A stretch of 64,000 nt of DNA from a virus: the IMG/VR virus record IMGVR_UViG_3300025122_000006, one strand, 5' to 3'. Under the pieces are notes generated by a model, which was not told where the DNA came from, made no database searches, and saw only the letters and a list, made by a program, of their open reading frames with translations. The position numbers and the translations under genes were made by a program. Positions 1 to 43,979 of the stretch are shown here, piece after piece. Position 1 is the stretch's first letter. Each line of letters starts with the position of its first letter.

Positions 1-2081
1 AGCACTCCCTGACGGAGGCCCAGCTGTTCGCCAAAAAAGGTGAGCGGCTTTATATTACGAAAATAACTCCTTGCAAATTGCTCCGATAGCTGGACTGTTC
101 TTTGGCAAGGATAAAAACCATCATATGGCAATAATTTTTTGATTGCTCGGCATCTTAATGTTAAAACTTTTGAGTCTGCGAAATCATCATGATCATTTTC
201 AATAATGTCAAAATGTTTCATAAAGTCTGAATTGGAATATGTTTTGTAAAAGTTCTCGTGCGAAGATCTATTGTTGCCCTTTACCCCGCCGGTGATCTCA
301 AATAATTCTTGAGAAAAATATATAGAACCGGTATTCATAATATCTGCAACATGCTCGCTCATCCTAAACTCAGGCAAAACAGAATAGCTTTGCCCTTTCA
401 ATCTTATATTTTCTGCAAATGCAGCATATGAATCATAAAACGGCGTTTTACCAGCTTGTATGTGTGCTTCCCAAAGAGCCTCTCCCTGTCCAAAATCAGA
501 CTGGAGATATGACTTAGTTGCTGGGCCACCTGATCCTGTTTCCGGGATTTCCATACCCGAAGGATTTGAAACAGATTGTGTGTTGTGGTAAGTATGTCTA
601 AAAGCATATTGGGGCGCACAGCCGTGAGTAGAATCGGCAATGGAGATGCCATTGGCCTTAAAGGGTTCAACATGTCCTGTTGGAAACTTTTCGGAAAAAT
701 CACAGTCTTTAAAAAGAGTCGTATGTACCATTGAATATAATTGGCAATAATTATTTTGCAAAACCCCAGGTGCTTTATAATTAATCCCCCCTCGGTTCTT
801 AGTGTAGACGACTGTGTAGCCGCTGGTGGCCTCACCGGGATCCCGAGCTGACTGTCCTAAAAATGGAAATCTCCTATAATCACCAAAACCATCCTCTGGC
901 TGGAGACTCGATGCTGATCTCGCCATCCCAAAACCAAAATCATCCTGTGCTCCCTGTGCAGAACTACTAGCGGCTACCCTAGGGTTTAGGCTCCCTGTCC
1001 TGGTCAAAAAATTCTCAGATGCGTCTAGCGGCCAAGAAGACGCAACCAATCGAGCTTCGGCGCCAGCACTGGGCGTGGCACTGAATAGCCCTCCCTCTCG
1101 CATCCACCATACCGAATGTCTTCCAAAGCCATCCCCTTGTCCAAAAGAATGCCTTTGCGGGTAGCGGTCATGATCACTAAGTCTGTCCGGTCGATTAACT
1201 CTAAAGAAAGATTTGAACTCCGGCCTACTTCTTATCGCGTTTCTATACATATTTTTAGATAAAGGATAGACAGTTTCTCGGTATTTTAAAAATTCCCAAT
1301 GTGTAAATGGACTATCTGGTTCTTCTAAATTTCCATTTAAATAAAATGTTTTAATAAGATTATACTCGGAATCTTTATGATCCATAACAATATTGTGTAA
1401 AGTATTTACTTCATCATTAGCAAAAGCATTTAAATTATTCCCGAATGATGTAAGAACAGAAAATCTGTCTAGCTCTTGAGTTGAGCCTTGTTTAAAATGT
1501 CTCCCAACATTCCAAACTAAAGGATAGCTGTTTCTAACAACAGCCGGTTCTTTGAAATTATAAAGTTTAGAATATCTTTCTAAAGCCAGTTTTGTCCCGC
1601 TGCCAGAAGGGGAAACATCGATAAGTTGGCCAGGCTGCGTAACAAATGTTAAATTGCTATTTCTATTGTGAAATCGCGATACGGGATTATCTGCTGTTCT
1701 GATTTGTTTCCAAGTACAATGTCCATATGGGCCATTTCTATGAAGGTTAAGAGAAACAAGGATATCAGGGATTTCATGGGGAACGGGGATGCTCATGTCG
1801 AAGCCGAAGGGACCAACCGTCGTGGACTTGGGGAGGTGAGCCACACTAATGTTTAAATATCTCTTGATATGTCCCCCTTGCGATGGGAGTAGTCCTGACA
1901 AGCCTCCTGCGAGGTCTCCTGATGGGATCACCAGATCCTCTGGGGGGATATTTCGAGGCTGATCTTGCCCGTTCAATTGCGGGGCGAAACCAATAGTATT
2001 AATACTAGCGCTGATTGGGTCTGAAATTAATGTATTCATTCCCACAAAATCAACAAAAACACCTTTTTTAAAAGTAGCCAT
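1..2081 (-). CDS. Large putative virion structural protein, runs off the window edge (>690 aa; missed by the ORF track)
   Basis: ATG at 2081 (MATFKKGVFVDFVGMNTLISDPI...) 2 nt after the stop of 2084..7564. Manual translation shows no stop over the segments read (e.g. ...FYDSYAAFAENIRLKGQSYSVLPEFRMSEH...). Lies in the baseplate cluster. Confidence 0.8.
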   Translation of the reverse strand, partial: MATFKKGVFVDFVGMNTLISDPISASINTIGFAPQLNGQDQPRNIPPEDLVIPSGDLAGGLSGLLPSQGGHIKRYLNISVAHLPKSTTVGPFGFDMSIPVPHEIPDILVSLNLHRNGPYGHCTWKQIRTADNPVSRFHNRNSNLTFVTQPGQLIDVSPSGSGTKLALERYSKLYNFKEPAVVRNSYPLVWNVGRHFKQGSTQELDRFSVLTSFGNNLNAFANDEVNTLHNIVMDHKDSEYNLIKTFYLNGNLEEPDSPFTHWEFLKYRETVYPLSKNMYRNAIRSRPEFKSFFRVNRPDRLSDHDRYPQRHSFGQGDGFGRHSVWWMREGGLFSATPSAGAEARLVASSWPLDASENFLTRTGSLNPRVAASSSAQGAQDDFGFGMARSASSLQPEDGFGDYRRFPFLGQSARDPGEATSGYTVVYTKNRGGINYKAPGVLQNNYCQLYSMVHTTLFKDCDFSEKFPTGHVEPFKANGISIADSTHGCAPQYAFRHTYHNTQSVSNPSGMEIPETGSGGPATKSYLQSDFGQGEALWEAHIQAGKTPFYDSYAAFAENIRLKGQSYSVLPEFRMSEHVADIMNTGSIYFSQELFEITGGVKGNNRSSHENFYKTYSNSDFMKHFDIIENDHDDFADSKVLTLRCRAIKKLLPYDGFYPCQRTVQLSEQFARSYFRNIKPLTFFGEQLGLRQGV

Positions 2082-2083
2082 AA

Positions 2084-5000
2084 TTATATCCCTGTTATGT
2101 ATCCATAAATAGTTGAAGCGGCTGGAAAATTAATTGCATTAATAGAAGACGTAACTCCTGTTGCATTCGATGCCGAATGTAATAATCCATTTGGCGGTGA
2201 ATAACCAAGTAGTACTTGATCGTTTCTCCAATTTTTTTGTAAAACTGAATCGGGAACATGTGCCGGGTTCTTTGCTTGATCGTGTGGTGTTTTGCCTGTT
2301 CCGTATGAAATTGTTGCCCCAGATAAAGCTGATCTAATCCAACTATATTGAAAATCGCTTCTAGGTATCGGTGATGATATATATCCATTATCAAACCTAC
2401 TACCGGTCACCACAGCATTACCACCTGCTTTTGGGTCGTTGATCGGGTCGACGCCATATTGCATGCGCCTTGATATGTTTCTATGCTGCTTTACAAAAGA
2501 ACCAGATGTGACTGATGACGACAAAGAGTGGATTACACCATAATCCAAGTCTCTTCCAAATTTGCCCATATGAGATGCCAGGACGGATTGCAATCCCCGC
2601 TGTTTGCCCAAGTGATCCGATACTCTTATAGTTGCTCGGGTTTGATGTTCCAACGCGCCGTAATCCAGAACCTTCCCTTTAGGTTCTCCGCTACTTGACA
2701 TTCTTACAGTTAAGTTTCTAAACGGAAGAGCGTTATGAACTGAATAAGTGTGCCTCTGCACATCTAGATAACCCATTGATTGAACCTCTGGTCCTCCAGG
2801 TGCTGAAAATCGGCTACATATTTCATATGTCGATTTTGTTAAATTCGTTTTAGGAATTTCAATTACAATATCGTTTGAATATGTTGTTAGGCGCAGATTA
2901 GTGGGGCTGGCAGGGGCTCTATACCACGGGGTTTGGTATTTCAGGGATTTAACATCTGGTTGTCGGTTGTTGTTCGCAACACCAAACACATTGCCTGAAA
3001 GAAACGGTGCTTGTCCGACAAGTGTCATGTAATTTGTGGTCAGTGGCAGCGACTTTTTTATAGATGTTGGCAAATCTAAATTAGAAGCGGAAGCAATTCG
3101 ATACCATCTTCTTTGATCTCCTTTCTGAAGGGTGACAATTTCGTAGCCCTTCCTGTAATTGCCCATGATAGCCGAGCCTGAACTGTGGCGGATATTTCTT
3201 ACATTTAAAGGACGCTTTGCATATTCATCTCTAAATTTGGTTGCCCTTGCTTTATCAACATTGGGGTATATTTTACCACCATAATCCGCAGATACATATC
3301 CCATTGCTCCGTCGGCTCGATAAGGAATGGGACCTGTCCAGTTGGTAAGCTCGCCTGGGACTAAGCCCCAAGCCTCTGGCCTATTTCTGGCACTGTCAAG
3401 CTTTTGTATGCCCCCGAGAGGAGCTTTGTCGGGGTCATACTTATTTATTCCAACGTGTCTAGATTGTTGTCCTCCAACATGCGTTCTTGTGAACGGACCT
3501 TGCATTGGAATTTCGTTCGTGTGATCGGTTGTATCGGAGTGTATATTAGTTACAATTACGTGATTTTTAAAATATGTATTAATATATCGATTGTATCCTG
3601 TATTTACGGTGCCGCTGACCAAAGTCATTGGCACTATAAGATCGCCTTTTAATGCATGCTTGTAATCGTCACCAAATCGATTTCCTACTTTTGCAATAAA
3701 ATTAAGTTTTATCTTTTCATTTGGATTTTTAACATCATTGCAAATATTTGATTGTTGTATGCTGTGCCCCAGTCCTTCGCCAATAACTATAACATTTTTT
3801 GGTATTTTAAGAAAAGCGAAACTACCAGTCTCAAGAGATCCATGCGGCAATATTGCATCTTTAAAGGCCATTACGTTTTTATCACGAGCATAATTAATGC
3901 CGCCGTGTATTGACCTTCTTGGGGCGGACATTTCAAACCTGTAAGGTTTGGATAATTTTCTTATTGTATAGGTTGAGCCATAATATATAGTACTTCCGCT
4001 CACCCTCCGAAGTGAATGAGATTGAAGAGAGTGGTTGTTTTTCACAATTCTTAAAGTTTCTGCTGTATTTGTCTCACCTTTTTTTCGATCTGCTTGCCAA
4101 AGGCAATTGTGTGATGACCCGCCGCTGACAGGAGCATGACCAAATTGCCAATCATAAAGTAACTCTTGAATTCCCTTCACAGACCCTTCGGTAGAAGTCC
4201 TTCTTCCAAGGATTCCTATCTTATTGACATATTTGTTTCTTTCTAAAACATGACTCTCTACTACATTTTTAATTCCCTTAGAGAATCTCGAAGATGCTGG
4301 ATATAATTGCTCGAGCGCTATAGAAATAGAATCGTCAATCCATTTATAAAATGATGTAAATTTATCCAAATTAGGAGTATTTTCAACATCTTCAAAGAAA
4401 CGTTCCTTCAGAAAAGATAACAAACTATAATCATGATGATAACGTTGATTTGGTTGCCCTATTAGATTATTGAAATCCAAAGCAGTAGAAAACATATTTA
4501 ACATTTCATCGGAAATAACACCATGTAAACTTTTTTCAAAAGAATAGAAATTATCAGAAACATCCTCATCAACAAAGAAATTCTCACTTCTATCATCTTT
4601 TATTACAACAAGATCGGAAGAGAATAGATCATCTGGTTGCTTTTTTCTAGCTGTATATATGAAATTTTTATCTATTGAATTGGTGCTCGAAGCCCTAAAA
4701 CCTGTTGCTTTTCCTTCATTGTTTTTTAGAACTATACCATTATAAATTCCATAACTAGAAGTTATATGAGAATTGGCTGATCCTGATGACAAATCATTTA
4801 TTATTAACTCCCCAGAAGGAGTTGATCCGGTCTTGTTAAAGAATGCCCAATGTAAAGCTAATGTTTTTTGTCTAGGTATTTCTTGACCGTCATTTAAGAA
4901 AATTGTATCGCTTTCAAATGGCTCATTCGCACCAAACGTTTCTGAATCATAAGCGTGTTGGTTAATTGCTTCATTTGATAAATAACTACTCCAATAACGA

Positions 5001-7564
5001 ACGTAGCCTAATTTAATGTCTGTTTTTTGCAGTGTCGAACCAGTAAAGTTCGTTTTATGAGCGCCAGCCCAGATACGTTTTTTGTTAGTTACAAATTTGT
5101 GGTTTGTTAAGCTCCCGGTTAAAAGAAAAGAGTTTCTTATAATATTCGCTTCAGCCTCGACACCATGGAGTTCTAAGGTATATCCAGCGGCAGCAGCGCC
5201 AGACACGTGACCCGAAAACGGATAACTATCATGCTTAATTCTAAGAGCAAGATTCCATTTATTATTTTCGTACTGACTATTAAACACTGATGACGATATA
5301 AGGGTATTGCTTCCCGATATTAAAAATCTAATTTTTTGTGTTTCACCAAACTCCAGATCACGTTCTAATTTTTCTTTTACTATAAAAACACCTAAATCAT
5401 AATCAGCGTCGGTTCTCCAGCTGTCCCAAGTATAATCATCAGCAGCAGGCACAGCGGAATGATATCCCAAAACCGAAGCCGTATAATTTGTAAATTTTAT
5501 ATATCCTATTTCATTAGATCTTGCCTTGCGGGGGAGAATAATTTCACTTTCTAAAGTAAGAGAAGTATAATTTGGAGATCCCGAAATATAAGTAGCAGCG
5601 TTTATTGTACTAGAAGTTTGATAAAGGGTAGCATCAAAACTATCTTCAAAATTAAAATTTAAATAATTTCTTTCAAAAGATTTATATTCATAATTATCTC
5701 TTAAAACGTATGTAGAATCATCAGCATAAAGTTTTAATTTTACCAGTTCATTACCAATACCGAGAGATCTAAAAAAGTTTCTAAAAGCTTTTTCTGTTCC
5801 TTTGGATTTGTAAATCCCAACAAGATTATTATAAAGATTATGATAAATTATATCTCGAACTTCGGATATCTTTTTTTCATAAACTTCATTATCGTCTTTT
5901 GCTCTAAATCTCTCCGGAACAGTGGCTTCAACAAACAAGTCAGGAATCACAAAACCTTTTGAATATAATAAATTTTTTGCAAACGGTAAAGGTTTATCCG
6001 ATCCACTCACATATCTTTCATCATGCAAAGTGCTAACAGAGTTTATTTGATGCCATATTGTATCAAAATAAGAACCTATTATTTGACATAAATATTTTAA
6101 ATTCTTACCTGACTCGGTATCGGTTTCCTGCATCCAGCCTGGAAACAATCGATAAAACATAGAAGTGCTTTCCAAATCAGCCAAGCTACCACTAGTCTTA
6201 TAACGCGTTATGGATCCTGTAACATCTGGGTGTGAAGAGTACACAATCGGATCTTTAAATTCTCTAAGGGCTGCTCCCGATTCAACTATGGCAGAGCCAG
6301 TTATTCTTGATGCATCTAAGTCCGCCGTATTAGACCCGGAGTACCCAACCCAAATCCCATCAGCTATTCTTCCTGAATAATCCAGAACTTTTAAATCTAC
6401 AGAATCATCACCAGTGATTCCCTCGTTAAATTTATAATAAAATCCTAAATTTATGTTGGGATCTCTTCTATTGGTTCCACCGCCTACAGGAACGAGGCGG
6501 GTATTACTAATTTCTTTATGGGTTCTCGCAGTTTTCCAAAACCTAAATTCATCTAAAGATCCGGATAGTTTGTTATATCCCAACATATCTAGACTATGAA
6601 ATATATTTCCTGATACAGAGGTGTAAAGAGACCCAATAGCCGCATTAGACCCAGTGGTTAATCCAACTATACCAGAAATACTATTTGCTGCGCTGTCTAA
6701 TATGTGCTTTGAAACTGCTTTGACATTGTCTTTATATAAATCAATGCCAGTTCCAGCGGAGGAAGACTGTAATGTTAAAGCATAATTGTGCCATAAACCG
6801 TCGTATGCATCAGCTAATAATTGCTGGTCGTCAAAGCCATGCGAACCTGATCGTAGAGTTAAATTTAATGCATCATTCGAACTAGTTAAATACAAAGTCA
6901 TTCTGCCATAAGCACTGGATCCCGTCGCTTCGCCGTTCCAAAGATCAAAAATAACTTCTTTTTGGTGGGTTTGTGCGTTTGATGGAGATGCCTTTTTCAA
7001 CCAAAATTCAATCGTTGTGCCCTCAGATAATATCACCTCTAAAGATGAGCCACGCTTATTAGAAGGATCATAAATCATTGATTTATCAAACGTCGAATAA
7101 AGTTTTTTTCCTATCATTCCGCTTGAAGCAGTATGAGGGCCTCCAAAGATTCTAATGTACTCTTTCGTTGTTGGAAGGCTGTTCCCGCGTAAACTACTTG
7201 TTATGGCCTTGCCTTGAACTGAAAATTTAGCATACCCATTTGTTCGAGGATAAAGATTTCCTAAAACATATAAATCCAAATAAGAAGATGAATTTTCAAA
7301 CTCAATTTTTTCTGCAAGAGTCCCATCATACGGATATTCTTGATAAATTCTTTTAAATGCATTTTCATAATAAAGTTCAGCAGATCCAAATTTAGAAAAC
7401 TTTGAAGGATCTGAAAAATCAATAGCCGGAATAAATCTATCCGTTTCTTTTCTCCTAGCGTCAATGTAATCTAGTGATTCCACCAATGCAGATGCACTAT
7501 TAGGAGTTTCGGATTTCTGAAATTGTTTATTACTATAATTGCTGAATAAATCTTTTATGCTCAT
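2084..7564 (-). CDS. Baseplate wedge/tail-associated protein with LamG (ConA-like) domains and a gp7-like segment
   Basis: TIEFWLK...WHNYALT...GSLDEFRFWK..YYKFNEG is a LamG-type pattern. YKSKGTEKAFRNFFRSLG resembles the T4 gp7 / P2 gpI wedge motif. Near gp6 and gp25. Confidence 0.7.
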   Translation of the reverse strand: MSIKDLFSNYSNKQFQKSETPNSASALVESLDYIDARRKETDRFIPAIDFSDPSKFSKFGSAELYYENAFKRIYQEYPYDGTLAEKIEFENSSSYLDLYVLGNLYPRTNGYAKFSVQGKAITSSLRGNSLPTTKEYIRIFGGPHTASSGMIGKKLYSTFDKSMIYDPSNKRGSSLEVILSEGTTIEFWLKKASPSNAQTHQKEVIFDLWNGEATGSSAYGRMTLYLTSSNDALNLTLRSGSHGFDDQQLLADAYDGLWHNYALTLQSSSAGTGIDLYKDNVKAVSKHILDSAANSISGIVGLTTGSNAAIGSLYTSVSGNIFHSLDMLGYNKLSGSLDEFRFWKTARTHKEISNTRLVPVGGGTNRRDPNINLGFYYKFNEGITGDDSVDLKVLDYSGRIADGIWVGYSGSNTADLDASRITGSAIVESGAALREFKDPIVYSSHPDVTGSITRYKTSGSLADLESTSMFYRLFPGWMQETDTESGKNLKYLCQIIGSYFDTIWHQINSVSTLHDERYVSGSDKPLPFAKNLLYSKGFVIPDLFVEATVPERFRAKDDNEVYEKKISEVRDIIYHNLYNNLVGIYKSKGTEKAFRNFFRSLGIGNELVKLKLYADDSTYVLRDNYEYKSFERNYLNFNFEDSFDATLYQTSSTINAATYISGSPNYTSLTLESEIILPRKARSNEIGYIKFTNYTASVLGYHSAVPAADDYTWDSWRTDADYDLGVFIVKEKLERDLEFGETQKIRFLISGSNTLISSSVFNSQYENNKWNLALRIKHDSYPFSGHVSGAAAAGYTLELHGVEAEANIIRNSFLLTGSLTNHKFVTNKKRIWAGAHKTNFTGSTLQKTDIKLGYVRYWSSYLSNEAINQHAYDSETFGANEPFESDTIFLNDGQEIPRQKTLALHWAFFNKTGSTPSGELIINDLSSGSANSHITSSYGIYNGIVLKNNEGKATGFRASSTNSIDKNFIYTARKKQPDDLFSSDLVVIKDDRSENFFVDEDVSDNFYSFEKSLHGVISDEMLNMFSTALDFNNLIGQPNQRYHHDYSLLSFLKERFFEDVENTPNLDKFTSFYKWIDDSISIALEQLYPASSRFSKGIKNVVESHVLERNKYVNKIGILGRRTSTEGSVKGIQELLYDWQFGHAPVSGGSSHNCLWQADRKKGETNTAETLRIVKNNHSLQSHSLRRVSGSTIYYGSTYTIRKLSKPYRFEMSAPRRSIHGGINYARDKNVMAFKDAILPHGSLETGSFAFLKIPKNVIVIGEGLGHSIQQSNICNDVKNPNEKIKLNFIAKVGNRFGDDYKHALKGDLIVPMTLVSGTVNTGYNRYINTYFKNHVIVTNIHSDTTDHTNEIPMQGPFTRTHVGGQQSRHVGINKYDPDKAPLGGIQKLDSARNRPEAWGLVPGELTNWTGPIPYRADGAMGYVSADYGGKIYPNVDKARATKFRDEYAKRPLNVRNIRHSSGSAIMGNYRKGYEIVTLQKGDQRRWYRIASASNLDLPTSIKKSLPLTTNYMTLVGQAPFLSGNVFGVANNNRQPDVKSLKYQTPWYRAPASPTNLRLTTYSNDIVIEIPKTNLTKSTYEICSRFSAPGGPEVQSMGYLDVQRHTYSVHNALPFRNLTVRMSSSGEPKGKVLDYGALEHQTRATIRVSDHLGKQRGLQSVLASHMGKFGRDLDYGVIHSLSSSVTSGSFVKQHRNISRRMQYGVDPINDPKAGGNAVVTGSRFDNGYISSPIPRSDFQYSWIRSALSGATISYGTGKTPHDQAKNPAHVPDSVLQKNWRNDQVLLGYSPPNGLLHSASNATGVTSSINAINFPAASTIYGYITGI

Positions 7565-9144
7565 TCTTCACTCACTCTAAACTTAAATTTATACGGCTGT
7601 TCTATGTAACTATTAGAATCTTCATCAAAGAAAGAATAATAGATTTCGTATTGGTAACCTTCTTCAAGCATGCCAGTATCAAGTTTAAAGTAATTTCCGG
7701 AAAGATCATAAGAGAGGCCTGTATGATACAAAGAACCAGTTCCATATGCTATGACAATTTCATCATCAATCGCTCTTTTAATCTGATAAGACGAACTCTC
7801 TATAAGAAGGCTGGGAACAGAATTTCTTATCGCTACATTATAAATATTTGGTGACCAATCCTTTTCTCTAACATAAAGTCTAAGCTTTGGAGTTTCACTT
7901 TTTCTATATTGATCTCGTAAGCTTGGCATTGAAAGTGTATATTTTTGATCCTCAGTAAAATCAGACGAATCGAAAGTTTTCGGTGTGATAGAACCAGTAT
8001 GAAATTGAAGGGCTGCGGTTTTTGCTGAAGTTACCGGGCCACTTCCACTATACCAAACATCAAAAACCCTATCTAACTGTGCAGAGCCAGTAAAAGCAAC
8101 AGAGGCAGAGTATATACCAGTAGAAACATAGCCTCCAGTAACAGCATGTTGAAAGCCAGATTCGGATGCCACGCCGCCAGATATACTTAGCCTGAGAGCA
8201 TCGCCATAAGGAGCAGAGTTGTCTGACGATCCGGAAAATAAACTAACAAAAATTAAATTTTTACCAATGCTAGGAATGTTTCTCAACCTTCCCCTAACAT
8301 AATTGTAAAGATATATTGTATTCATGTTGTCTGAGGCTGGCGCGACAGAACTACTAAAATAAAAATTGCCACGGTCATCCCTTTTTGAGTCATCCCACCT
8401 TGCTTCTAAAACAGGTTTCTTAAAGAAAAATTCAGAATCTCTACCGAAAAATCTTTTGGTATAATATGAATCAGTAGAGCCAGTGGCGTTATGAATTACG
8501 CTCCCCGATTCATTATTGTCACCGGTGTCAAAAAAGCCCAAAGATGATGAAGCCTGTGCTTCATAGGAGCTGCTTAATTTGATGAGAAATCCGTAATTTG
8601 ATCTTGTACCATCAATCCACTGTTCTACAAAATCAGAAACGTTTATTGTTAAATCCTCAAAACCAGTTTCAAGTGCTTGTACAGCAGGGAGGGATGAATG
8701 AGTGTCGCCACCGACATTAGTCCAGCCCTCGGTACTAGAAGCCGAGAGCCAATTAGAGCCAATATTATTCTTGGTCAAATCTTTATAGGTCTCCATGTCT
8801 AATCCGTAACCTTCTTCCCACTCTCGAGATACAGACAACACCTCCATTTTAAAATCTCTTGGTGTTGTTCTAGAATGCGGAGCATCATACATTTTGAGAT
8901 ACCAAGTGACCGATCCTGAAGCTGCTAATTTATCAGCGTTTCTATCGGCTATTATATCATTTGTATTGAATTGAATTAAAACCCTTGATAATTCTGAGGA
9001 CGCCGAAGAGGCGCCGCCATAAATGGAAAAAACCTCTAGAATATCAGAGGCTCCCATATTTGATCCAGTGCCACGGGTTGACAAGTCTTCTTCAAAAGCA
9101 TTTGTTATAGTATTGTCTTTCGTCGCGAAATATCTTCTGATCAT
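7561..9144 (-). CDS. Virion protein with N-terminal DNRLRE/CBM96-like beta-sandwich
   Basis: KDNTI...SRVLIQF...WEEG...W...GGD...VSDFVEQW....NYGFLIK...KPVLEARWDD pattern; located in the baseplate operon. Confidence 0.55.
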   Translation of the reverse strand: MIRRYFATKDNTITNAFEEDLSTRGTGSNMGASDILEVFSIYGGASSASSELSRVLIQFNTNDIIADRNADKLAASGSVTWYLKMYDAPHSRTTPRDFKMEVLSVSREWEEGYGLDMETYKDLTKNNIGSNWLSASSTEGWTNVGGDTHSSLPAVQALETGFEDLTINVSDFVEQWIDGTRSNYGFLIKLSSSYEAQASSSLGFFDTGDNNESGSVIHNATGSTDSYYTKRFFGRDSEFFFKKPVLEARWDDSKRDDRGNFYFSSSVAPASDNMNTIYLYNYVRGRLRNIPSIGKNLIFVSLFSGSSDNSAPYGDALRLSISGGVASESGFQHAVTGGYVSTGIYSASVAFTGSAQLDRVFDVWYSGSGPVTSAKTAALQFHTGSITPKTFDSSDFTEDQKYTLSMPSLRDQYRKSETPKLRLYVREKDWSPNIYNVAIRNSVPSLLIESSSYQIKRAIDDEIVIAYGTGSLYHTGLSYDLSGNYFKLDTGMLEEGYQYEIYYSFFDEDSNSYIEQPYKFKFRVSEE

Positions 9145-10937: not shown

Positions 10938-10938
10938 T

Positions 10939-11340: not shown

Positions 11341-11370
11341 CTTTAAAATCCTCTTTTAAATAATTAGATC

Positions 11371-18585: not shown

Positions 18586-18594
18586 TTTTAGTCC

Positions 18595-22635: not shown

Positions 22636-22636
22636 T

Positions 22637-23701: not shown

Positions 23702-23719
23702 TTTAAAATAAACTCGTTT

Positions 23720-24187: not shown

Positions 24188-24190
24188 TTT

Positions 24191-25992: not shown

Positions 25993-26013
25993 CTCCGTTT
26001 TTAAATATTATAA

Positions 26014-26844: not shown

Positions 26845-26866
26845 AATATAACTCCTATTAAATTTT

Positions 26867-31251: not shown

Positions 31252-31253
31252 AA

Positions 31254-34557: not shown

Positions 34558-34560
34558 CTG

Positions 34561-36022: not shown

Positions 36023-36031
36023 TCTTTCCTC

Positions 36032-36652
36032 TTAAAATTGAACTCTTGTCCCCGCACCAGCGTGAGGATATTTATCTAAATTATATTTGTAATATGTAAT
36101 GTATTCATCATTAACCCCTTCGTAAGTCATCTTCTCCAGAGCCCAAGTTGCTTTCGTATCAGTGCATACAGATTTGCCATTATCTTCAATAATAAAATGA
36201 ATAGGTAGTTTATGGTTTCTAGCATATTTAATACATTCGTGTGCTGCTCCTGTCTCGGAAGTCATTTCTCCCATGAAGCAATAAACTTTATTGGTTCCGC
36301 CCGACCTTTTTATGCCGAGAGCCAAACCTACCGAAACAGATAATTGACCTGTCACGATTCCAGAACATAAAACTCGTTGTTCTTTGAAGCCTAAAGAAAT
36401 TGATCTTCCCTGCAAGATAGACTTTTTTAATTCTTCTTTCGGGACACCTTTTAATAAGCATTGATAATGACTCCTCCAAGAACACAAAACCCAATCATCT
36501 TTACTAATTTTATGTTTTTTAAAAATATCAATCATTTGCTCTTCATTGCCATGATATAAATGAACTGGTGCCTTAATTAACGCATTATTAAAGCATTCTG
36601 CTATTTCATTTTCGAATTCAATTAATTCTTCTTTAGTCATCATTTTAATCAC
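36032..36652 (-). CDS. ThDP enzyme PP-binding subunit (E1-alpha-like, short)
   Basis: PVHLYHGNE; WRSHY..L.KG; GIV; FMGEM..ETG..HE....HKLPIHFIIEDN. Confidence 0.8.
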   Translation of the reverse strand: MIKMMTKEELIEFENEIAECFNNALIKAPVHLYHGNEEQMIDIFKKHKISKDDWVLCSWRSHYQCLLKGVPKEELKKSILQGRSISLGFKEQRVLCSGIVTGQLSVSVGLALGIKRSGGTNKVYCFMGEMTSETGAAHECIKYARNHKLPIHFIIEDNGKSVCTDTKATWALEKMTYEGVNDEYITYYKYNLDKYPHAGAGTRVQF

Positions 36653-38159
36653 CTAAAATTTTTCTTTTTAATTTATGATCACACATCTTAACAATCCCAT
36701 CACGAGTTTCTTTTCCAAATTTATTTTCAATGGAATTCAAATATCTTTCGTCTTCGTGATAATTGTTAAATGCGGCATCCCTAAATTTTACCACTTCTGC
36801 CGCGGAAATATATTTGGTATCAAGTGGACGCATATTATAGGAATGCTGAGAATAGCCAACATAAGAATCTGGCAATGTTAAACTCTCTTTAAGTGCCTCT
36901 AGATACAATTTAGACCCTGGATATGCCATCGAACAATAAAAATTTGCAAATTCACAATTCAAATCTTTTGCCAAATCTAGAGTCTCTTGCATAGTTTCCA
37001 GGTTGTCTTCGGGTAAACCAAAAATATAATTACCAATTACATTTATACCAGCATCTTGAATTTGTTTTACTAAATCTTTAATGTTAACTTCGGTGAATTT
37101 TCCTTTGATAACATCTTTTCTAACGACTTTATTGCCCGACTCAATTCCCAATGCTAACCATTCAACGCCAGCTTTTTTCAAAGTTTCTAAATAAGATTCT
37201 TTTACTGTATCAATTCTTGCATATGCCCAGATATTAAAATCGTATCCTCTATCGACTATATTGTCACATAATTTCATGAAATGATTTTTGTTCAAAACGA
37301 ACATCTCATCAGCAATTTTTACATTCCTAATTCCCATTTCAGCAATCTTATCAAATTCAGTTATCATGAAATCTGGATCCCAAAATCTAAACTTATTTCT
37401 TCCATAATCCCAATTTTCAATATTATTGTTCCCAAAAGGAGCATTAATGCAACAAAAACTACATCTAAAGGGGCACCCAAGGCTCGTATACAAAGACGCA
37501 AAAGGAGCGGTATCATTATCATTAGACATTGCATGCCAGTTGGAAGTTCTATATTTTTCCATAGGAAGAAGATCCCAGGCTACACCGGGAAGTTCATGCT
37601 GTAGTTGGTCTTGTGTGATTAAAGGAGCCGGTCTTGTAAAACAAATTTTACCTTCATCCCTATACCATAGTCCTGGTACTTTTCTTAATTGTGTTGAGTC
37701 TTCTAAATCACTAATTTGCAAAAGAGCAGTGATCGTTCTAGGGCCTTCTCCTTGGCAAACAAAATCGGCTTTTTCATCTTGCATTGTTTTTCGCGAAGTC
37801 GCCGATGGATAGAGACCAGTCAACAAAACTTTTAGACTTGGGTTTATTTCTTTTAAAAATTCCATACAATCATGTACACCTTGCATATTTTGAGTTGAAG
37901 CCGATGGTTGTTGTCCATAGACCACAAACACAGTTAATTTTGGATTTAATTTATTAATCCTCATGGCACTTTCAAACGAAGAAATACCTTCCGCTTCACA
38001 ATCCAAAATTAGTGTATTATGGTATCCAGCCGATCTTAAGTGATTAGCCAGCAAACCAGCCCAAATTGGAGGCTCAATTGCAGATAAATTTTTACTTAAA
38101 TCTTGATAAACTTTTTCTGATGCGTTGGGATGCACAAATAATACATCTAATTTATTCAT
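36645..38159 (-). CDS. Cobalamin-dependent (class B) radical SAM protein
   Basis: N-terminal B12-binding-like domain; SLGCPFRCSFCC (CxxxCxxC); ADEMF; LGIESG; YIFGLP; YPGSKLY; AGGAG RBS before ATG 38159. Confidence 0.9.
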   Translation of the reverse strand: MNKLDVLFVHPNASEKVYQDLSKNLSAIEPPIWAGLLANHLRSAGYHNTLILDCEAEGISSFESAMRINKLNPKLTVFVVYGQQPSASTQNMQGVHDCMEFLKEINPSLKVLLTGLYPSATSRKTMQDEKADFVCQGEGPRTITALLQISDLEDSTQLRKVPGLWYRDEGKICFTRPAPLITQDQLQHELPGVAWDLLPMEKYRTSNWHAMSNDNDTAPFASLYTSLGCPFRCSFCCINAPFGNNNIENWDYGRNKFRFWDPDFMITEFDKIAEMGIRNVKIADEMFVLNKNHFMKLCDNIVDRGYDFNIWAYARIDTVKESYLETLKKAGVEWLALGIESGNKVVRKDVIKGKFTEVNIKDLVKQIQDAGINVIGNYIFGLPEDNLETMQETLDLAKDLNCEFANFYCSMAYPGSKLYLEALKESLTLPDSYVGYSQHSYNMRPLDTKYISAAEVVKFRDAAFNNYHEDERYLNSIENKFGKETRDGIVKMCDHKLKRKILGD

Positions 38160-38166
38160 AATTCTC

Positions 38167-39096
38167 CTAGTAATTTGCGAACCAAGGCGATTCAATAATT
38201 TCATATGCTTTCATTAATTCTTTGATACCAGTATCAAGATCATTTTCACAAGTGAAACCTTTGTCATAAATCTTTTGGCTACTAACAACATAATCTCTAG
38301 TATCAGGATCAGAATTGAATTCAGCCTTAATAACCTCCAAAGGAATGTGTCTTTGAATTGTTTTTGCAAGTTGTAATTTGTTCATGTTGATTTCATCATG
38401 GCCAACATTATAAGTTTCATTTTTGCATTGTTCCCAATTATCTAAAACAAATTTAAACGATCTACAAGCATCTTGAATATGCAAATAATTCCTCATAAAT
38501 TCACATTCATATAAAACCAAAACCCTTTCTCGCAAAGCTTTTAGGACAAAATTATTAACTAATAGGTCCGTTCTCATTCTAGAAGAGGGGCCAAAAACAG
38601 TTGCAAATCTAAATGTCACATGATTTTCCACTTCTTTGTAGGCTTTCTCTGCCTGCACTTTTGTGACTCCGTACAAGGAAATAGGATTTAATTCGGATTC
38701 TTCGGTACACACGCCATTACCGGTTCCGTATCCAGAATTTGTACAAGGATAAATAACTATTTGATCTTTCGATTTATTATCGGCAATCCACTGATTTACT
38801 TCGTAATTGATTTCTTTTGCCCCTCTTTTATCTCTATCGCATAGGGGAAAACCAACTAGTGCTGCCAATGGAATTATAATATCTGCTTTTGATACATATT
38901 TTTTTAAAAGATTAATGTTTCTAACATCTTCTTTTACAAAATTAAAATTTGAACACGTAGTATATCGCAATAAAGAAGTGCAATCATACATTAAATTATC
39001 TAAACAGGTGACTTCATAGCCATCACCTAATAAATGCGCAGTGAGTTCACTACCGATATACCCAGCTCCGCCCGTAATTAAAACTTTTTCTCTCAT
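38167..39096 (-). CDS. NAD-dependent epimerase/dehydratase (paralog of 25042..25992)
   Basis: GGAGYIG; PLAALVGFPLC; YGVTK; RFATVFG.S.RMRTDLLVN; likely start MREKVL at 39096. Confidence 0.9.
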   Translation of the reverse strand: MREKVLITGGAGYIGSELTAHLLGDGYEVTCLDNLMYDCTSLLRYTTCSNFNFVKEDVRNINLLKKYVSKADIIIPLAALVGFPLCDRDKRGAKEINYEVNQWIADNKSKDQIVIYPCTNSGYGTGNGVCTEESELNPISLYGVTKVQAEKAYKEVENHVTFRFATVFGPSSRMRTDLLVNNFVLKALRERVLVLYECEFMRNYLHIQDACRSFKFVLDNWEQCKNETYNVGHDEINMNKLQLAKTIQRHIPLEVIKAEFNSDPDTRDYVVSSQKIYDKGFTCENDLDTGIKELMKAYEIIESPWFANY

Positions 39097-39398
39097 CACC
39101 ACTCCAGTTTTCCAGTTACAATATCTTTGAGCATTATCCAATCACATGCTTTTGCCCATGCTGGTCTCGAGAAAGCAGCGGGAATGTTTTTTTCAAAAAA
39201 ATAATGCCCTGACCACGCAAAGGGATAAACAACAAAAGGCGCCAATAACAGCAAAGCCCAAATCTGTGTTAATATGGTGCCTATAATAAATATAATTGTT
39301 ACTAGTTGACCTAAAACATGTAAACGACGAGTCCATTTATTCTGATGTAATGTTAAATAGTATTCATAATATTCTTTAAATGTCAAGTTATTATTCAT
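39096..39398 (-). CDS. DUF962/Mpo1-like membrane protein
   Basis: F.EYY.YYL.LHQN..TRRLH..G; FAWSGHYFFEKN.PA.F. Confidence 0.85.
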   Translation of the reverse strand: MNNNLTFKEYYEYYLTLHQNKWTRRLHVLGQLVTIIFIIGTILTQIWALLLLAPFVVYPFAWSGHYFFEKNIPAAFSRPAWAKACDWIMLKDIVTGKLEW

Positions 39399-39798
39399 CC
39401 CAACTAATCTCCCAATCTTTAAATTCTGCCGCCAAGCAGTCTATCTTATAATCTTTGCGACCGCCAACTTTTTCTTGTATTCTATTCTTTGCTGTGTTTC
39501 TGATTCCATTTAGGCCGTGAGTTAATTCTAAGTTATTTCCATCTCTAATTCCTTTACGATAATTTGATTCATTGTGCCAAATGTGTAAATTCATTTGAGA
39601 GAGTACGACGATGGATCGAATTAATTGAGCATCGATTACTTTGCTTTCTGAGAGCAAAATATCAATGTCATGGCAAATATCCGAAATTTCTTTAGCGTAT
39701 TCTTCTTTATGATTAGGGATAAAAACCTCTTTCAACTGGACTATAGATAATCTATCTACTAGTTCGGATAATGTCGGTAAATATTTTCTTTTTTCCAT
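39391..39798 (-). CDS. Hypothetical helical protein
   Basis: TLSELVDRLSIVQLK...NLHIWH.E...N..RN..KN.I. Confidence 0.65.
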   Translation of the reverse strand: MEKRKYLPTLSELVDRLSIVQLKEVFIPNHKEEYAKEISDICHDIDILLSESKVIDAQLIRSIVVLSQMNLHIWHNESNYRKGIRDGNNLELTHGLNGIRNTAKNRIQEKVGGRKDYKIDCLAAEFKDWEISWDE

Positions 39799-39799
39799 T

Positions 39800-41428
39800 T
39801 CAGCCTCCTACAAATTGATCGAAATATGGTTTAAATAGGGAATAATTATCCCCAAAAAGATTACGATATTCATAAAAGATCCTAGCTTCTTCCCTTTTTT
39901 GTTCAAGATTATCATCAGAACTAGATCTACCCCCAGAATAATATAAGCCCACCACTTCATCAATTTTCTTGAACCTGCTTCCATTAGAAACACTTCGGAG
40001 CCACATTTCCCAATCATCTGCATAGTTGCACCTTTCAGAATCAAAAAACCCATATTTATCATGTATATTTCTTCTCCAAAGAGGCATGGGGCCTGGCAGG
40101 CATTTTATCATGTTTTCCTTTGAAAATGGAAATCTAGAGTGATCAAACAACATACTATTTGACGAATTTTCTTCAAATTTTTCATTTGCGACTTCTGTAC
40201 AATAAACATCTCCATACACTAAATCGATTGTTGTATCATCTTTCATATTATTATAAAGCACTTCCAGACAATCGTTTCTTTTTACATCATCAATAAAGGC
40301 AAAAGTTACATATTCCCCATTGGATAGCTCCAGAGCTCTGTTCAAGCAAGGTGTAATCGCTTCTTTTTCTTCCAATCTTTTATAAACTATATTATCAAAT
40401 TTTTTCAAATATTTTTTAATTAGTTCGGACTCCCCTCTGTAAGACCCAGCATCAATTATTATTAACTCACAATCATTAAAAATGGTTTGATTAGTTATGT
40501 TTTCTAAAAAATTATTTAGAAAACCTTTTCCTTCATGAAAGGTTGTGATAATTGAAACCAAAGGGTTTCTTTTTTCTTCTAAATCGCGTTTGTATAACCG
40601 CTCAATAATAGAAATAATTTCAGACCTTTTTTTATACATAAATTCAATAAGCTCTTCGCCTTTTAAGCTGAACCACTCTTCAGAGGCGGCTCCCGCTAAA
40701 TTATTTGTAATAACAGAGCACCCCATCATCCTAGCTTCAACCAATATCCTAGATAAAGTTTCTGGTGTTTTTGGTAAAAAAAGAAATTTGGAATTTGATC
40801 CAAGTTTTTCTAGAAATTTAAAATAATTGGGATCAGAAATTAATTCATATTTTAAATCTTTGGATGAGCAATAGCGTATAGCCCCTAAAGTGTTTTTGTG
40901 TTCGATATCAGATTCCATTATTGAAATTTTATCTGTTTGTTTTTGCATCTTAGATATTTCCTTCATTTTGTGCAAACTATCCTTAGACCACAAATTTCCT
41001 CCCAAATTAATTACGTTATCAAGTTTCAAGTTTTTTTCAATTATTTCTTTATGAAATTTTGATTGACAAAGCACAGCCATCGCATTTTTATAAAAATAAA
41101 AATTAATCAAATTTTTTGGAGATGCCTTAAAGTCTCTATAAGTTGCTGGGTTTCTTGATTTTAAATACTTATGATCATGCTCGTATATTAAATACCTTAA
41201 GTTCATTAACACCTGTCGACATTCATTAGAAAGATTAATATAATTAGATACAATAAAAAACGCATTTTTATTAGAATTTATTAATCTTTTTGTAACAAGA
41301 TGAGATTGTGTTTTGTCAACTTTATAACCTCCATTTCTTAATTCCAAAATTAATTCTTCATTATTTAATTCTCCACCACCAAGAATATGTTCAGTAAAAA
41401 AATCAGCTATAAAAATAATTTTTTTCAT
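39800..41428 (-). CDS. Bifunctional glycosyltransferase: N-terminal GT-B(GT4)-like + C-terminal GT2
   Basis: GGGE; ETLSRILVEARMMGC; then PLVSIITT..ELIIIDAGS..FIDD..GPMPLWR..DDWEMWLR. Confidence 0.85.
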   Translation of the reverse strand: MKKIIFIADFFTEHILGGGELNNEELILELRNGGYKVDKTQSHLVTKRLINSNKNAFFIVSNYINLSNECRQVLMNLRYLIYEHDHKYLKSRNPATYRDFKASPKNLINFYFYKNAMAVLCQSKFHKEIIEKNLKLDNVINLGGNLWSKDSLHKMKEISKMQKQTDKISIMESDIEHKNTLGAIRYCSSKDLKYELISDPNYFKFLEKLGSNSKFLFLPKTPETLSRILVEARMMGCSVITNNLAGAASEEWFSLKGEELIEFMYKKRSEIISIIERLYKRDLEEKRNPLVSIITTFHEGKGFLNNFLENITNQTIFNDCELIIIDAGSYRGESELIKKYLKKFDNIVYKRLEEKEAITPCLNRALELSNGEYVTFAFIDDVKRNDCLEVLYNNMKDDTTIDLVYGDVYCTEVANEKFEENSSNSMLFDHSRFPFSKENMIKCLPGPMPLWRRNIHDKYGFFDSERCNYADDWEMWLRSVSNGSRFKKIDEVVGLYYSGGRSSSDDNLEQKREEARIFYEYRNLFGDNYSLFKPYFDQFVGG

Positions 41429-42660
41429 TCATACTCCTTAATAATATCCTCTATTTCACCCAGCCAATTATCATCATTCTCATATACGCAATTAACAAAA
41501 TTTTCAAATAATTTTTCATCACTAAAATTTTCATTAATTATTTTTTTTAATTCTAATGCTGTCTTTTTTGCTTTATCGTAGTTTTTCCAAGTCTTTCTTA
41601 ACATCATCTTATACGATCCCTGGTCTGCATGTGCCCACATTGAATCTTGTTGGATTACTCCCTCCCATATTGCTTCTGGTTGTACCGGGGCTAAAGAATA
41701 TTTTACTTTTTGAAAATAATCCTTCTTATTATGTCTCAGAAAATCTAGCTGCCCAGACCAAGATATTGTAATAACGGGCAATCCTTCTCTGGCAGCTTCG
41801 TACAAAGGTAATCCGAAACCTTCTCCATGTGCTATATTAATTATTGATTTAATTTTTTCATGATTATATAACCAAGTCATTTGACCACTAGAAAGATCAC
41901 CGTGAAGAAGATAAACTTTGCATTTTCTATCTGGATATTGTTTCATAAACATTGATAATGAACCTTCTACCTGTTGTTTGTCCATAATAGAATTGCTTTT
42001 AATATTTGTTTTAACTACAAGCCCAACTTCTTGATCTATAAACTCTTCAACCCACCATTTAATAGAATTTGTAAAGTTCTTTCTAGGTCCCATTTGTGAT
42101 ACAATTAAAAAATTAAAATCATAAACTAACTGAAACTCATTAATCTCTTCTGGGCTTGTTCTAGGTGTGTTTTCCCAAACAACTTCAACGGGTTTTTCAA
42201 GCTTATAAGGAAACTGTTCTCCTGTATTGTTGTTTACAGCCGTAACCATGGTCTTTTTATAAGTATTTTTTGCATGATTGGAAACGACAAGAATCTTATC
42301 CATATCATTTCCTTTTTGAAGCCAAATAGGTGCCACTTTATTAGTTTCAATACCCGCCGTATAACCAATGTTAACAGGACAAATTTTTTCAAATTCATTA
42401 GGGATTGTAATTTGTAAACTAATATCTGGTGTTAATTTTTTTTCCTGAACTAGTATCTGAGTCTGTATAATTTTATCATCCACCCATCGACGAAACTCAT
42501 CATCCTCCCAAACCCAACCAGTTTCTCCCCAAGGGATGGGTTGGATATAAATATCAAATAAATCTTCTCTTGATCTTAAAGCTCGTAATGCAAACCTAGC
42601 TTGCTCCCCATAGCCAGATTGGGAAAGAATCGGACCTCTTACAAATATTTTTTTTATCAC
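41425..42660 (-). CDS. GT4-family glycosyltransferase
   Basis: SGYG; PRKN; GEGFGLPLYEAA..GLPVI. Confidence 0.9.
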   Translation of the reverse strand: MIKKIFVRGPILSQSGYGEQARFALRALRSREDLFDIYIQPIPWGETGWVWEDDEFRRWVDDKIIQTQILVQEKKLTPDISLQITIPNEFEKICPVNIGYTAGIETNKVAPIWLQKGNDMDKILVVSNHAKNTYKKTMVTAVNNNTGEQFPYKLEKPVEVVWENTPRTSPEEINEFQLVYDFNFLIVSQMGPRKNFTNSIKWWVEEFIDQEVGLVVKTNIKSNSIMDKQQVEGSLSMFMKQYPDRKCKVYLLHGDLSSGQMTWLYNHEKIKSIINIAHGEGFGLPLYEAAREGLPVITISWSGQLDFLRHNKKDYFQKVKYSLAPVQPEAIWEGVIQQDSMWAHADQGSYKMMLRKTWKNYDKAKKTALELKKIINENFSDEKLFENFVNCVYENDDNWLGEIEDIIKEYE

Positions 42661-43922
42661 GCTATCTCCTTAAATGTAATACTATTATATCCTTTTCTTG
42701 TGGACCAAGAACCTTGTTCTTCATGCAAATCTAACATTAACTTCACCCATTTACTTTTAAATTCTGTAAAATTATAATTCTCCAAAACATGCTGCCTACC
42801 TTCTTTTCCCATTTGTAAACGAGCATCCTCACCCATATCATATAAATTATTTAAGGCAGATAAGAAATGTTCCTTACTAACTCTATCTTCATAAATATAT
42901 GGAACTTCTTGAGAGCCTATAATAACTTTGGATACAGGAAATAAGGGAACACCAAACTGTTTTCCTGGAGCGATTACTTGTTCCTGTAAGCCGCCGGTAA
43001 CCGTCGCTATAATTGGAGTCCCGCAAGAAAGAGATTCTAGAGTAGATAACCCAAAACCTTCTGCGTCTGATATATTGACGGTAACATCAACTAAATTATA
43101 AAATTGGGGCATTTTCTCTAATGGAACCTTTGTTGTAGAAAATAAAACCTGTCCGGCATCTAAACCCAATTCCTCAACAATATGAATTAAATCCTGCCCG
43201 TGGGAATCCTTGGGATCGGTATGCATTATTAATTGAGCTTTGTCGTGCAAATCTCTCTTATCTAGCCATTCTTTAAACCACCATATTAATGTACCAGATT
43301 GTTTTCTACGAGCATTTCTGTTGTTCCAAAAAATTATAAATTTATCAACGTCTTTATCAGAAATGCTCGATTGACGAAAAGCTTTTCTTTGCTCTTTACC
43401 TATGCGTGTAAACAAACTACTGTCAACTGCATGAGGTAAATAAGTACATTTTACTTCAGGAGCCACGTTTCTTACAACATCTTCAGTTAATTTAGATATA
43501 GCCACAACAAGATCGTTCGATAAATAAAATTGACGATTAAAATTTGGATATGGATAGTTATCCCAAACATGATAATAAACAATTGGACAAAGAGGCCTGA
43601 TTTCATTCTCAATCATCCATAACCATCCGTAAAATCTTGGATCAGTCATAATCCATAGTATATCTGGCTTTTCGTTTCTCAACAAAGACCTTATCATATC
43701 TTGAGTACCATAGCCGTCAACGGGAAAAATTCTCCATTCTTCCGCCCAAGGCTCTACTGACATTGGCTCATAATTATTGTGTTTAATAGCTCCTCCTAAT
43801 GAAATAACCTCAAATTTACCAGATTCTAGAAGAGCCTCACAAACATAACGAGTTTGAGTGCCGACACCAGATGGACTTAATGGGTGATCACCTATAGTTA
43901 AAACTTTGATTTTTTTAGACAT
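42657..43922 (-). CDS. GT4-family glycosyltransferase
   Basis: SGVG; PHAVD; RNARRK; EGFGLSTLESLSCGTPII...GG. Confidence 0.9.
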   Translation of the reverse strand: MSKKIKVLTIGDHPLSPSGVGTQTRYVCEALLESGKFEVISLGGAIKHNNYEPMSVEPWAEEWRIFPVDGYGTQDMIRSLLRNEKPDILWIMTDPRFYGWLWMIENEIRPLCPIVYYHVWDNYPYPNFNRQFYLSNDLVVAISKLTEDVVRNVAPEVKCTYLPHAVDSSLFTRIGKEQRKAFRQSSISDKDVDKFIIFWNNRNARRKQSGTLIWWFKEWLDKRDLHDKAQLIMHTDPKDSHGQDLIHIVEELGLDAGQVLFSTTKVPLEKMPQFYNLVDVTVNISDAEGFGLSTLESLSCGTPIIATVTGGLQEQVIAPGKQFGVPLFPVSKVIIGSQEVPYIYEDRVSKEHFLSALNNLYDMGEDARLQMGKEGRQHVLENYNFTEFKSKWVKLMLDLHEEQGSWSTRKGYNSITFKEIA

Positions 43923-43950
43923 ACGTCTCCTTAATGTTTGTTTTGGTTAT

Positions 43951-43979
43951 AATATAACACATGAAAAATGTATTGTCAA
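43951..43979 (-). promoter_or_regulatory. Sigma70-type promoter heading the glycosylation locus
   Basis: TTGACA-17-TATATT with TGTG before -10, A/T-tract UP element upstream, AAGGAG RBS downstream. Confidence 0.8.

Follow-up and report, generated by a model that had tools for sequence, protein, structure and literature searches.

A three-residue motif enriched in exterior virion proteins of a marine T4-like phage clade tracks one glycosyltransferase gene and may mark sites of O-glycosylation

The 64,000 nt stretch of DNA analysed here (the window) is part of the genome of an uncultured virus (IMG/VR record IMGVR_UViG_3300025122_000006) and encodes baseplate proteins rich in the tripeptide [ST]GS (Ser or Thr, then Gly, then Ser) together with a 21 kb locus of glycosyltransferase (GT) and sugar-nucleotide genes. 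Every gene in the window was on the minus strand. In the direction of transcription, a PhoH-PIN fusion, a PD-(D/E)XK nuclease and other early-type genes were followed by a sigma-70 promoter (43979-43951), two GT4 genes, a gene for a protein with a GT2 domain and approximately 17 kb of nucleotide-sugar and tailoring genes ending at 22637. These were followed in the same direction by a baseplate module (an M15-peptidase protein, a 2404-aa protein, gp25 and gp6) and then by the genes of three motif-containing proteins of 527, 1826 and 693 aa. The features on which the analysis depends, with the expected [ST]GS counts derived from amino-acid composition, were as follows.

3-2081, minus strand: 693-aa open reading frame (ORF) running off the window; 4 [ST]GS against 0.8 expected (p = 0.016)
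2084-7564, minus strand: 1826-aa baseplate-distal giant; 20 [ST]GS against 2.7 expected, a count reached by 0 of 500 shuffles
7561-9144, minus strand: 527-aa all-beta protein; 9 [ST]GS against 1.2 expected, a count reached by 0 of 500 shuffles
9141-10937, minus strand: gp6-like baseplate wedge protein, 598 aa; 0 [ST]GS against 0.5 expected
10939-11340, minus strand: gp25-like baseplate wedge protein; no motif
11371-18585, minus strand: 2404-aa protein between the hub/peptidase genes and gp25; 0 [ST]GS against 0.9 expected
39800-41428, minus strand: 542-aa protein with a GT2 (GT-A) domain at residues 293-458 (Pfam)
41425-42660, minus strand: second GT4 (GT4b, 411 aa), candidate motif writer; PF20706 26.5 bits (cut-off 26), PF00534 23.9 bits, just under the cut-off
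42657-43922, minus strand: first GT4 (GT4a, 421 aa); PF00534 45 bits (cut-off 26.4)
43951-43979, minus strand: near-consensus sigma-70 promoter directly upstream of GT4a (TTGACA, 17 nt, TATATT with TG)

The remaining ORFs of the window's 62 contained at most one [ST]GS each. An initial annotation, made from the sequence of the window, had counted the tripeptide by hand, and its counts (20, 9, 4 in the ORF it placed at 1..2081, and 0 in both gp6 and the 2404-aa protein) were exact; its rough expectations of 3 and 1 for the two richest proteins agreed with the computed 2.7 and 1.2. The motifs were also as dispersed as it had described, since the sites were scattered and BLAST found neither internal repeats nor paralogy among the motif-rich proteins. 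A Laminin_G_3 (ConA-like) domain was found at residues 180-353 of the 1826-aa protein.

The phage is of an abundant uncultured marine T4-like type for which related marine contigs are very numerous, and the clade contains two complete relatives of approximately 186 kb (G001 and G002). The nearest gp6 and capsid proteins were those of Flavobacterium phage immuto, Microcystis phage Mel-JY01, two uncultured huge phages and Rhodothermus phage RM378. Near-identical DNA was not found in cultured phages for positions 1-20000, and for the sugar locus it was limited to a patch of 144 bp; tblastn searches of cultured phages with the 1826-aa and 527-aa proteins gave no match, and a scan of IMG/VR for relatives of the hub-peptidase protein found none. 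A capsid-profile scan for intermediate relatives returned the same marine clade only, which was used for clade statistics and added no new contrasts. The genome-wide statements below rest on relatives, namely G002 and the clade contigs.

When all ORFs of G002 were counted, seven proteins held 50 [ST]GS against 9.4 expected, whereas the other 178 or so ORFs held 26 against 24.8 expected. The seven were the tail sheath, the gp23-type capsid protein, the orthologues of the 527-aa and the 1826-aa (with the 693-aa) proteins, and three unknown proteins, with no detectable similarity to one another. The 693-aa ORF was orthologous to residues 1920-2480 (approximately) of a 3233-aa baseplate giant of G002, which makes it the downstream part of that protein. 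This giant is a single ORF in G002 (44096-53797) and at least two in the window (1826 aa and the open-ended 693 aa), and from these alignments it is split or fused between close relatives. The 3170-aa G002 protein in the same position as the 2404-aa protein had 0 [ST]GS against 1.6 expected.

Over approximately 90 marine clade contigs, this exterior set held 671 [ST]GS against 157 expected (4.3x). The observed/expected ratios for single families, and for the proteins of the pooled comparison, were as follows.

Sheath: 4.3x
Capsid protein: 3.9x
Neck-adaptor-like 421-aa protein: 4.3x
163-aa protein: 3.0x
131-aa protein: 7.2x
527-aa family: 6.2x
Tail tube, baseplate hub, prohead protease, terminase, gp6, gp25 and neighbours, pooled: 0.26x (12 against 46 expected)

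Within the depleted group, the tail tube had 0 [ST]GS against 4.8 expected over 29 orthologues, and gp6, which served as an internal negative control, had 2 against 5.0 expected over 12 orthologues. The position of the sites within proteins was also uneven. The N-terminal 55% of the capsid protein held 217 of its 232 [ST]GS sites, and in the sheath all of the sites kept in at least 10% of orthologues fell within residues 144-634 and none in the conserved C-terminal core. Individual sheath sites mostly occurred in just 10-37% of orthologues, and this low sharing points to repeated gain and loss. The excess thus appears to be confined to outward-facing parts of non-homologous virion proteins, a distribution that favours a glycosylation tag. 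A shuffled common domain was considered as the cause of the excess and was rejected because there was no paralogy among the motif-rich proteins.

The 527-aa family has more than 4800 metagenomic members, of which the best 120 averaged 7.3 sites where 1.1 were expected. In its AF2 model (pLDDT 80) the window protein was all-beta, with a CBM-like domain and Ig-like domains, and a fold search with this protein gave generic CBM and Ig-like matches only. Of its nine sites, most lay in loops or at strand ends, two overlapped short strand or bridge residues and one was within a strand. This placement fits a different explanation, in which the motif is a favoured strand-end or turn sequence of the beta-sandwich decoration domains of the clade, simply inherited, and the match with GT4b is a coincidence of shared ancestry. 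The same explanation would account for sites 26, 76 and 469 of the 527-aa family being kept in 87-95% of the best 120 of the more than 4800 members, and for one site that coincides with what we take to be the conserved Gly of the LamG C-terminal strand (LSGSLDEFRFW). We nevertheless regard it as unlikely, because the excess spans unrelated folds in proteins without detectable paralogy, many of the sheath sites are lineage-specific gains in variable regions, and the sporadic sites of the 527-aa family are approximately 1.7x commoner than permuted words.

The composition of the motif bears on the same question. In the exterior set, [ST]GS was enriched 4.3x and [ST]AS 2.0x; the permuted words [ST]SG, G[ST]S, S[ST]G and GS[ST] were at 1.0-1.7x, and [DN]GS (0.53x) and AGS (0.74x) were depleted. 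A simple Asx/ST-turn would accept Asp or Asn at the first position, yet these are disfavoured there, so that the specificity looks more like recognition than folding. Alignment of orthologous sites of the window and G002 revealed S/T and G/A swaps with the pattern retained (for example LSGSLDEF and LSASIDEF). Hydrophobic residues were preferred at positions -1 and +3 of the motif; on a strand, this arrangement would set both hydroxyls on the opposite, presumably solvent, face. The earlier remark that the motif often follows a hydrophobic residue was weakly true, applying to 14 of the 33 sites in the window (a hand count) and to 50% of 241 sites in four genomes against a background of 32%. The counts for immuto and Mel-JY01 were inflated by collagen-like and low-complexity repeats with periodic Gly. 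Such repeats were rejected as the cause of the excess, which persisted under strict masking.

Eleven phage genomes were then compared with an ORF caller of our own, both unmasked and after masking of low-complexity stretches rich in S/T/G. The masked [ST]GS ratio, the number of enriched proteins (from the unmasked test for LR756511 and LR756508 and from the masked test for the other genomes) and the presence of homologues of the two GT4 genes were as follows.

G002: 1.84; 4 enriched; GT4a yes; GT4b yes
immuto: 1.99; 6 enriched; GT4a yes; GT4b yes
Mel-JY01: 2.42; 7 enriched; GT4a yes (split); GT4b yes
RM378: 2.54; 4 enriched; GT4a yes; GT4b yes (divergent)
T4: 0.56; 0 enriched; GT4a no; GT4b no
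S-SSM7: 1.12; 1 enriched; GT4a no; GT4b no
S-CBS4: 1.13; 0 enriched; GT4a yes; GT4b no
LR756511: 1.23; 1 enriched; GT4a no; GT4b no
TJE1: 1.25; 0 enriched; GT4a yes; GT4b no
LR756508: 1.29; 1 enriched; GT4a yes; GT4b no
HTVC008M: 1.33; 0 enriched; GT4a no; GT4b no

The initial annotation had proposed to check whether [ST]GS enrichment in relatives accompanies the glycosyltransferases. The excess tracked GT4b, being present in 4 of 4 genomes with this gene and 0 of 7 without it, and did not track GT4a, homologues of which were found in 7 of the 11 genomes. Additionally, a blind screen of 185 G002 ORFs, for those with a homologue in both immuto and Mel-JY01 and none in five non-enriched T4-like genomes, returned a single ORF, which was GT4b. 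The result also bears on the idea that the motif is a tag for something other than sugar (phosphorylation, cross-linking, or binding of host polysaccharide or metal) with GT4b as a passenger. The sequence identifies no chemistry, and Ser and Thr hydroxyls accept many modifications, but the 185-ORF screen gave no kinase or other enzyme with the same phyletic pattern, only a glycosyltransferase, and we consider such a tag very improbable.

The excess was missing from the sheath and capsid orthologues in T4, cyanophage S-SSM7, pelagiphage HTVC008M and the huge phage LR756508. The last of these is informative, as the capsid tree was (LR756511,(G002,(RM378,(LR756508,(Mel-JY01,immuto))))), and LR756508, which has neither GT4b nor the excess, was nested among enriched phages by nodes with support of 97/96 and 81/88; the branching of the sheath tree was unresolved. 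The lack of excess in orthologues from phages without GT4b, including this nested one, is not what an inherited structural motif would predict, although the small number of independent contrasts in the census leaves that explanation some room. LR756508 (484 kb, uncultured) has two tandem sheath paralogues of 824 aa each (202463-208426), with 0 [ST]GS against 0.58 and 0 against 0.38 expected.

GT4a was considered as the writer of the motif and is less likely than GT4b to fill this role, because LR756508, S-CBS4 and TJE1 have it without the excess and a frameshift divides it in the Mel-JY01 record. In that record (PP395634.1, 83441-84932) the GT4a homologue is annotated as two coding sequences in different frames, reflecting a frameshift or a sequencing error, and the adjoining GT4b is intact. 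In cyanosiphovirus S-CBS4 (NC_016766.1, 9916-12282), genes for a GT4a homologue, a galactosyltransferase and a methyltransferase lie between the portal and head-protease genes; judged from its gene content, this group is possibly a separate virion-glycosylation module, without [ST]GS excess.

Both GT4a and GT4b belong to the GT4-type retaining GT-B glycosyltransferases (Pfam Glycos_transf_1 clan). The EX7E motif was EGFGLSTLE in GT4a and EGFGLPLYE in GT4b, with both Glu and the flanking Gly invariant among homologues, and a basic motif (R-N-x-x-R-K in GT4a, R-K-N in GT4b) was likewise invariant. The AF2 model of GT4b (pLDDT 90.3) had at least 500 PDB matches at E <0.001, and all of the matches listed were GT-B enzymes. 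For both proteins the nearest solved structure, by sequence and by fold, was B736L of chlorovirus NY-2A. GT4b had more than 7500 metagenomic homologues, and identity among the best 120 of these was 66-73%. BLAST found no counterpart of the 542-aa GT2 protein in the other genomes compared, and some members of the clade carry GT4b fused to a GT2 domain. The gene order PD-(D/E)XK nuclease, GT4, GT4, GT-A, methyltransferase was common to the window, immuto and Mel-JY01.

The remainder of the locus, and the neighbouring genes upstream of its promoter, contained the following features.

22637-39798, minus strand: variable sugar-nucleotide and tailoring part, from Pfam, NCBIfam and PHROG searches
22989-23309, minus strand: HAD phosphatase (heptose-type activation)
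23306-23701, minus strand: nucleotidyltransferase, cytidylyltransferase-like (heptose-type activation)
26867-27607, minus strand: PfkB kinase (heptose-type activation)
26014-26844, 28767-29552, 29553-30341 and 31254-32075, minus strand: four tandem paralogues of approximately 260-276 aa (31-40% identity), GT2-like by ESM-Atlas features only
33565-34557 and 34561-35505, minus strand: two paralogues of approximately 320 aa (38% identity), GT2-like by ESM-Atlas features only
35483-38204, minus strand: split transketolase/E1-like pair and a B12-binding radical-SAM enzyme
44006-44959, minus strand: 317-aa ORF just upstream of the locus promoter, with four transmembrane-like segments and no family match
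46094-46759 and 47230-48600, minus strand: region of the PhoH protein with a fused N-terminal PIN domain; a 221-aa neighbour had weak matches to ATLF and M90 metallopeptidases, both below the cut-off

Further genes of the locus encoded a DegT aminotransferase, five SDR epimerase/dehydratase/reductase proteins, cupins, a methyltransferase and an Mpo1-like protein. The nucleotide-sugar pathways that the initial annotation had described were therefore borne out by kinase, cytidylyltransferase-like, phosphatase, aminotransferase and SDR genes. Its figure of approximately nine GT-like genes held in part: three were recognised by Pfam (one GT2 and two GT4), and the other six, which had no Pfam, NCBIfam or PHROG match, are leads that are GT2-like by language-model features only. 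These six form the two paralogous families listed above and may be a diversified set of GT-A transferases. The transketolase/E1-like pair and the radical-SAM enzyme, as family assignments, suggest a sugar with a C-branch or a C-methyl group.

The cupin, HAD phosphatase, nucleotidyltransferase and PfkB genes (22637-23701 and 26867-27607) were 38-65% identical to a block of the cyanophage S-SSM7 genome (108994-111768), the nearest counterpart of the heptose-type genes, and this similarity suggests that a heptose-type activation cassette has been exchanged between unrelated marine phages. The GT4 pair was kept in G002 and most of the sugar genes differed, so that the transferase pair is conserved while the donor pathways are swapped. 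Searches of the locus ORFs with family models gave no flippase, polymerase, ligase or initiating-transferase match. By hydropathy the locus proteins were soluble; transmembrane-like segments beyond routine SDR/Rossmann stretches were found only in the small Mpo1-like protein and in the 317-aa ORF outside the operon. This ORF, which was not conserved at the same position in immuto or Mel-JY01, also contained terminator-like hairpins inside its coding region (44682-44705 and 44771-44788).

The promoter at 43951-43979 was the only strong promoter heading the 21 kb locus, with no comparable site within 20000-39999. It was one of five near-consensus sigma-70 promoters found before early-type genes on the minus strand, the others being at 46784-46812, 51083-51111, 51677-51705 and 56481-56509. 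All five had TTGACA, a 17 nt spacing and TATAAT or TATATT, and four had the extended -10 TG. Such promoters imply early-type transcription of the locus by host RNA polymerase. The T4-type late promoter TATAAATA was not enriched in the window.

Early transcription would also suit action of the locus on phage DNA (base glycosylation) or on host envelope glycans (surface conversion or superinfection exclusion), with the motif excess having a separate cause. The DNA glucosyltransferases of T4 are likewise early genes. A PD-(D/E)XK nuclease adjoins the locus in the window, immuto and Mel-JY01, replication genes adjoin it in Mel-JY01 and RM378, and the related heptose genes of S-SSM7 occur without motif excess. 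However, no match to the PF00303 thymidylate-synthase/dCMP-hydroxymethylase family was found in G001, G002, Mel-JY01 or RM378 (a ThyA-like gene is present in immuto), which weakens T-even-type DNA glycosylation, this test covering the hydroxymethyl-pyrimidine route only. Action on the host envelope is disfavoured by the lack of flippase, polymerase, ligase or lipid-carrier transferase matches among the locus ORFs, and neither target explains why GT4b alone tracks the motif excess. We therefore consider a DNA or host target improbable.

The reading that we prefer is that [ST]-[GA]-S is an O-glycosylation acceptor tag on the virion exterior, written by GT4b and extended by other transferases with lineage-specific sugars. 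From the sequence comparisons presented here, we give this reading an even chance of being correct. The earlier proposal of virion glycosylation by the locus is supported in part: the acceptor motif is strengthened by the exterior-only excess, by its absence from orthologues elsewhere and by the link to GT4b; the locus is a candidate source of the donor sugars, and six of the nine transferases are candidates. As a mechanism, the locus would be transcribed early from its host-type promoter, so that soluble enzymes and activated sugars would accumulate in the cytoplasm. As the late virion proteins fold, GT4b (41425-42660) would add the first sugar to Ser or Thr of exposed tags, which would usually lie at beta-strand ends, the two hydroxyls facing the solvent and separated by the small Gly or Ala. 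GT4a and the variable GT-A-type enzymes would then extend the glycan with lineage-specific sugars, and the outcome would be a variable sugar coat over the capsid, sheath, neck and baseplate periphery.

Several observations weigh against this glycosylation reading. Most of the sugar genes of the window are without a counterpart even in the close relative G002, and because S-SSM7 has related heptose genes without motif excess, the sugar genes need not serve the motif. The early-type promoter is compatible with action on DNA or on the host as well as on the virion, and replication genes surround the module in Mel-JY01 and RM378, as they would for DNA-modifying transferases. The GT4 folds most resemble those of enzymes whose acceptors are small molecules or unknown, and they show no sign of acting on protein, a distinction that a fold search with GT4b cannot make. 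Exposure of the sites was judged from secondary structure and domain position only, and the 1297-aa and 972-aa proteins of G002, which are possibly exposed, have no sites. The GT4b call in RM378 was a weak profile match (E 5e-10), the divergent copy adjoining the RM378 GT4a. The 11 genomes contain approximately two concordant evolutionary changes, so the association, which could be coincidental, is suggestive and not proof. Literature searches turned up no report of sheath or capsid glycosylation in these phages, and no publication on Mel-JY01.

A broader claim follows more tentatively, and we think it somewhat less likely to be right than wrong: that a widespread T4-like clade, abundant in the ocean and cultured on Flavobacterium, Microcystis and Rhodothermus, coats its whole virion exterior (head, sheath, neck and baseplate) with O-glycans at a three-residue sequon by means of a dedicated GT4, the glycan being diversified between close relatives by swaps of sugar cassettes in the manner of O-antigen variation and the internal proteins avoiding the sequon. 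To our knowledge, glycosylated phage particles have so far been documented in a few actinobacteriophages. If the reading is correct, a defined sequon and its named enzyme, in a marine phage clade that is abundant, would make glycosylated virions predictable from sequence. It would also provide a function for the large, hypervariable, export-less sugar islands of many marine phages, which are usually read as 'auxiliary metabolic genes' that modify host lipopolysaccharide (LPS), and would bear on particle stickiness, on grazing and decay in seawater, on recognition by host defences and on the interpretation of cryo-EM data. The pair of a small soluble enzyme and its tag is directly testable because three cultured relatives exist.

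Comparison with known systems places the candidate among several cytoplasmic and viral glycosylation pathways. It differs from PglL-type en bloc O-glycosylation, as the membrane oligosaccharyltransferase, lipid-carrier initiating transferase and flippase of that system were not matched among the locus ORFs. The T4-like cyanophage S-SSM7, with its LPS-type sugar clusters, shares the heptose-type genes described above but has neither a PF00534 (GT4-type) match nor a motif excess. The O-GlcNAc transferases GtfA and GtfB of serine-rich-repeat adhesins are an adjacent pair of cytoplasmic GT-B proteins that modify Ser in S-x-S-type sequence before export. In contrast to that pair, both GT4s of the window keep the catalytic EX7E and the tags are dispersed and not in long repeats; GtfA and GtfB were not retrieved in the PDB searches.

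The bacterial autotransporter heptosyltransferases TibC and Aah, acting on TibA and AIDA-I, are similar in performing cytoplasmic O-glycosylation of many Ser residues on a beta-rich exported protein with nucleotide-activated heptose, and the window has heptose-type activation genes. The mapped sites of TibA are a Ser followed by a small residue (NSGG, TSAA), resembling [ST]-[GA]-S (PMC4358343). However, no locus ORF matched the heptosyltransferase (GT9-type) Pfam model, and the candidates here are GT4 enzymes. Chloroviruses make their capsid glycans with cytoplasmic glycosyltransferases of their own, without host machinery, and B736L of NY-2A (PDB 3OY2) is the nearest solved relative noted above. 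B736L is a putative glycosyltransferase whose acceptor is unknown, and chlorovirus glycans are N-linked at atypical sites (PMC9614988), unlike the O-linked glycans proposed here. The identity of B736L to the GT4s of the window is only approximately 13%.

Virion glycosylation of mycobacteriophages (Che8 type) was reportedly described by Freeman and colleagues in 2023, and the likeness is that soluble phage glycosyltransferases would modify structural proteins in the cytoplasm to give a sugar-coated particle. The mycobacteriophage glycans are carried by the C-terminal ends of the capsid and tail-tube subunits (PMC12619734). The candidate system in the window differs in that its candidate sites are dispersed, are N-terminal in the capsid protein, occur also in sheath, neck and baseplate proteins and are missing from the tail tube. 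It further differs in belonging to T4-like myoviruses of Gram-negative-type marine hosts and in having a large variable sugar pathway attached.

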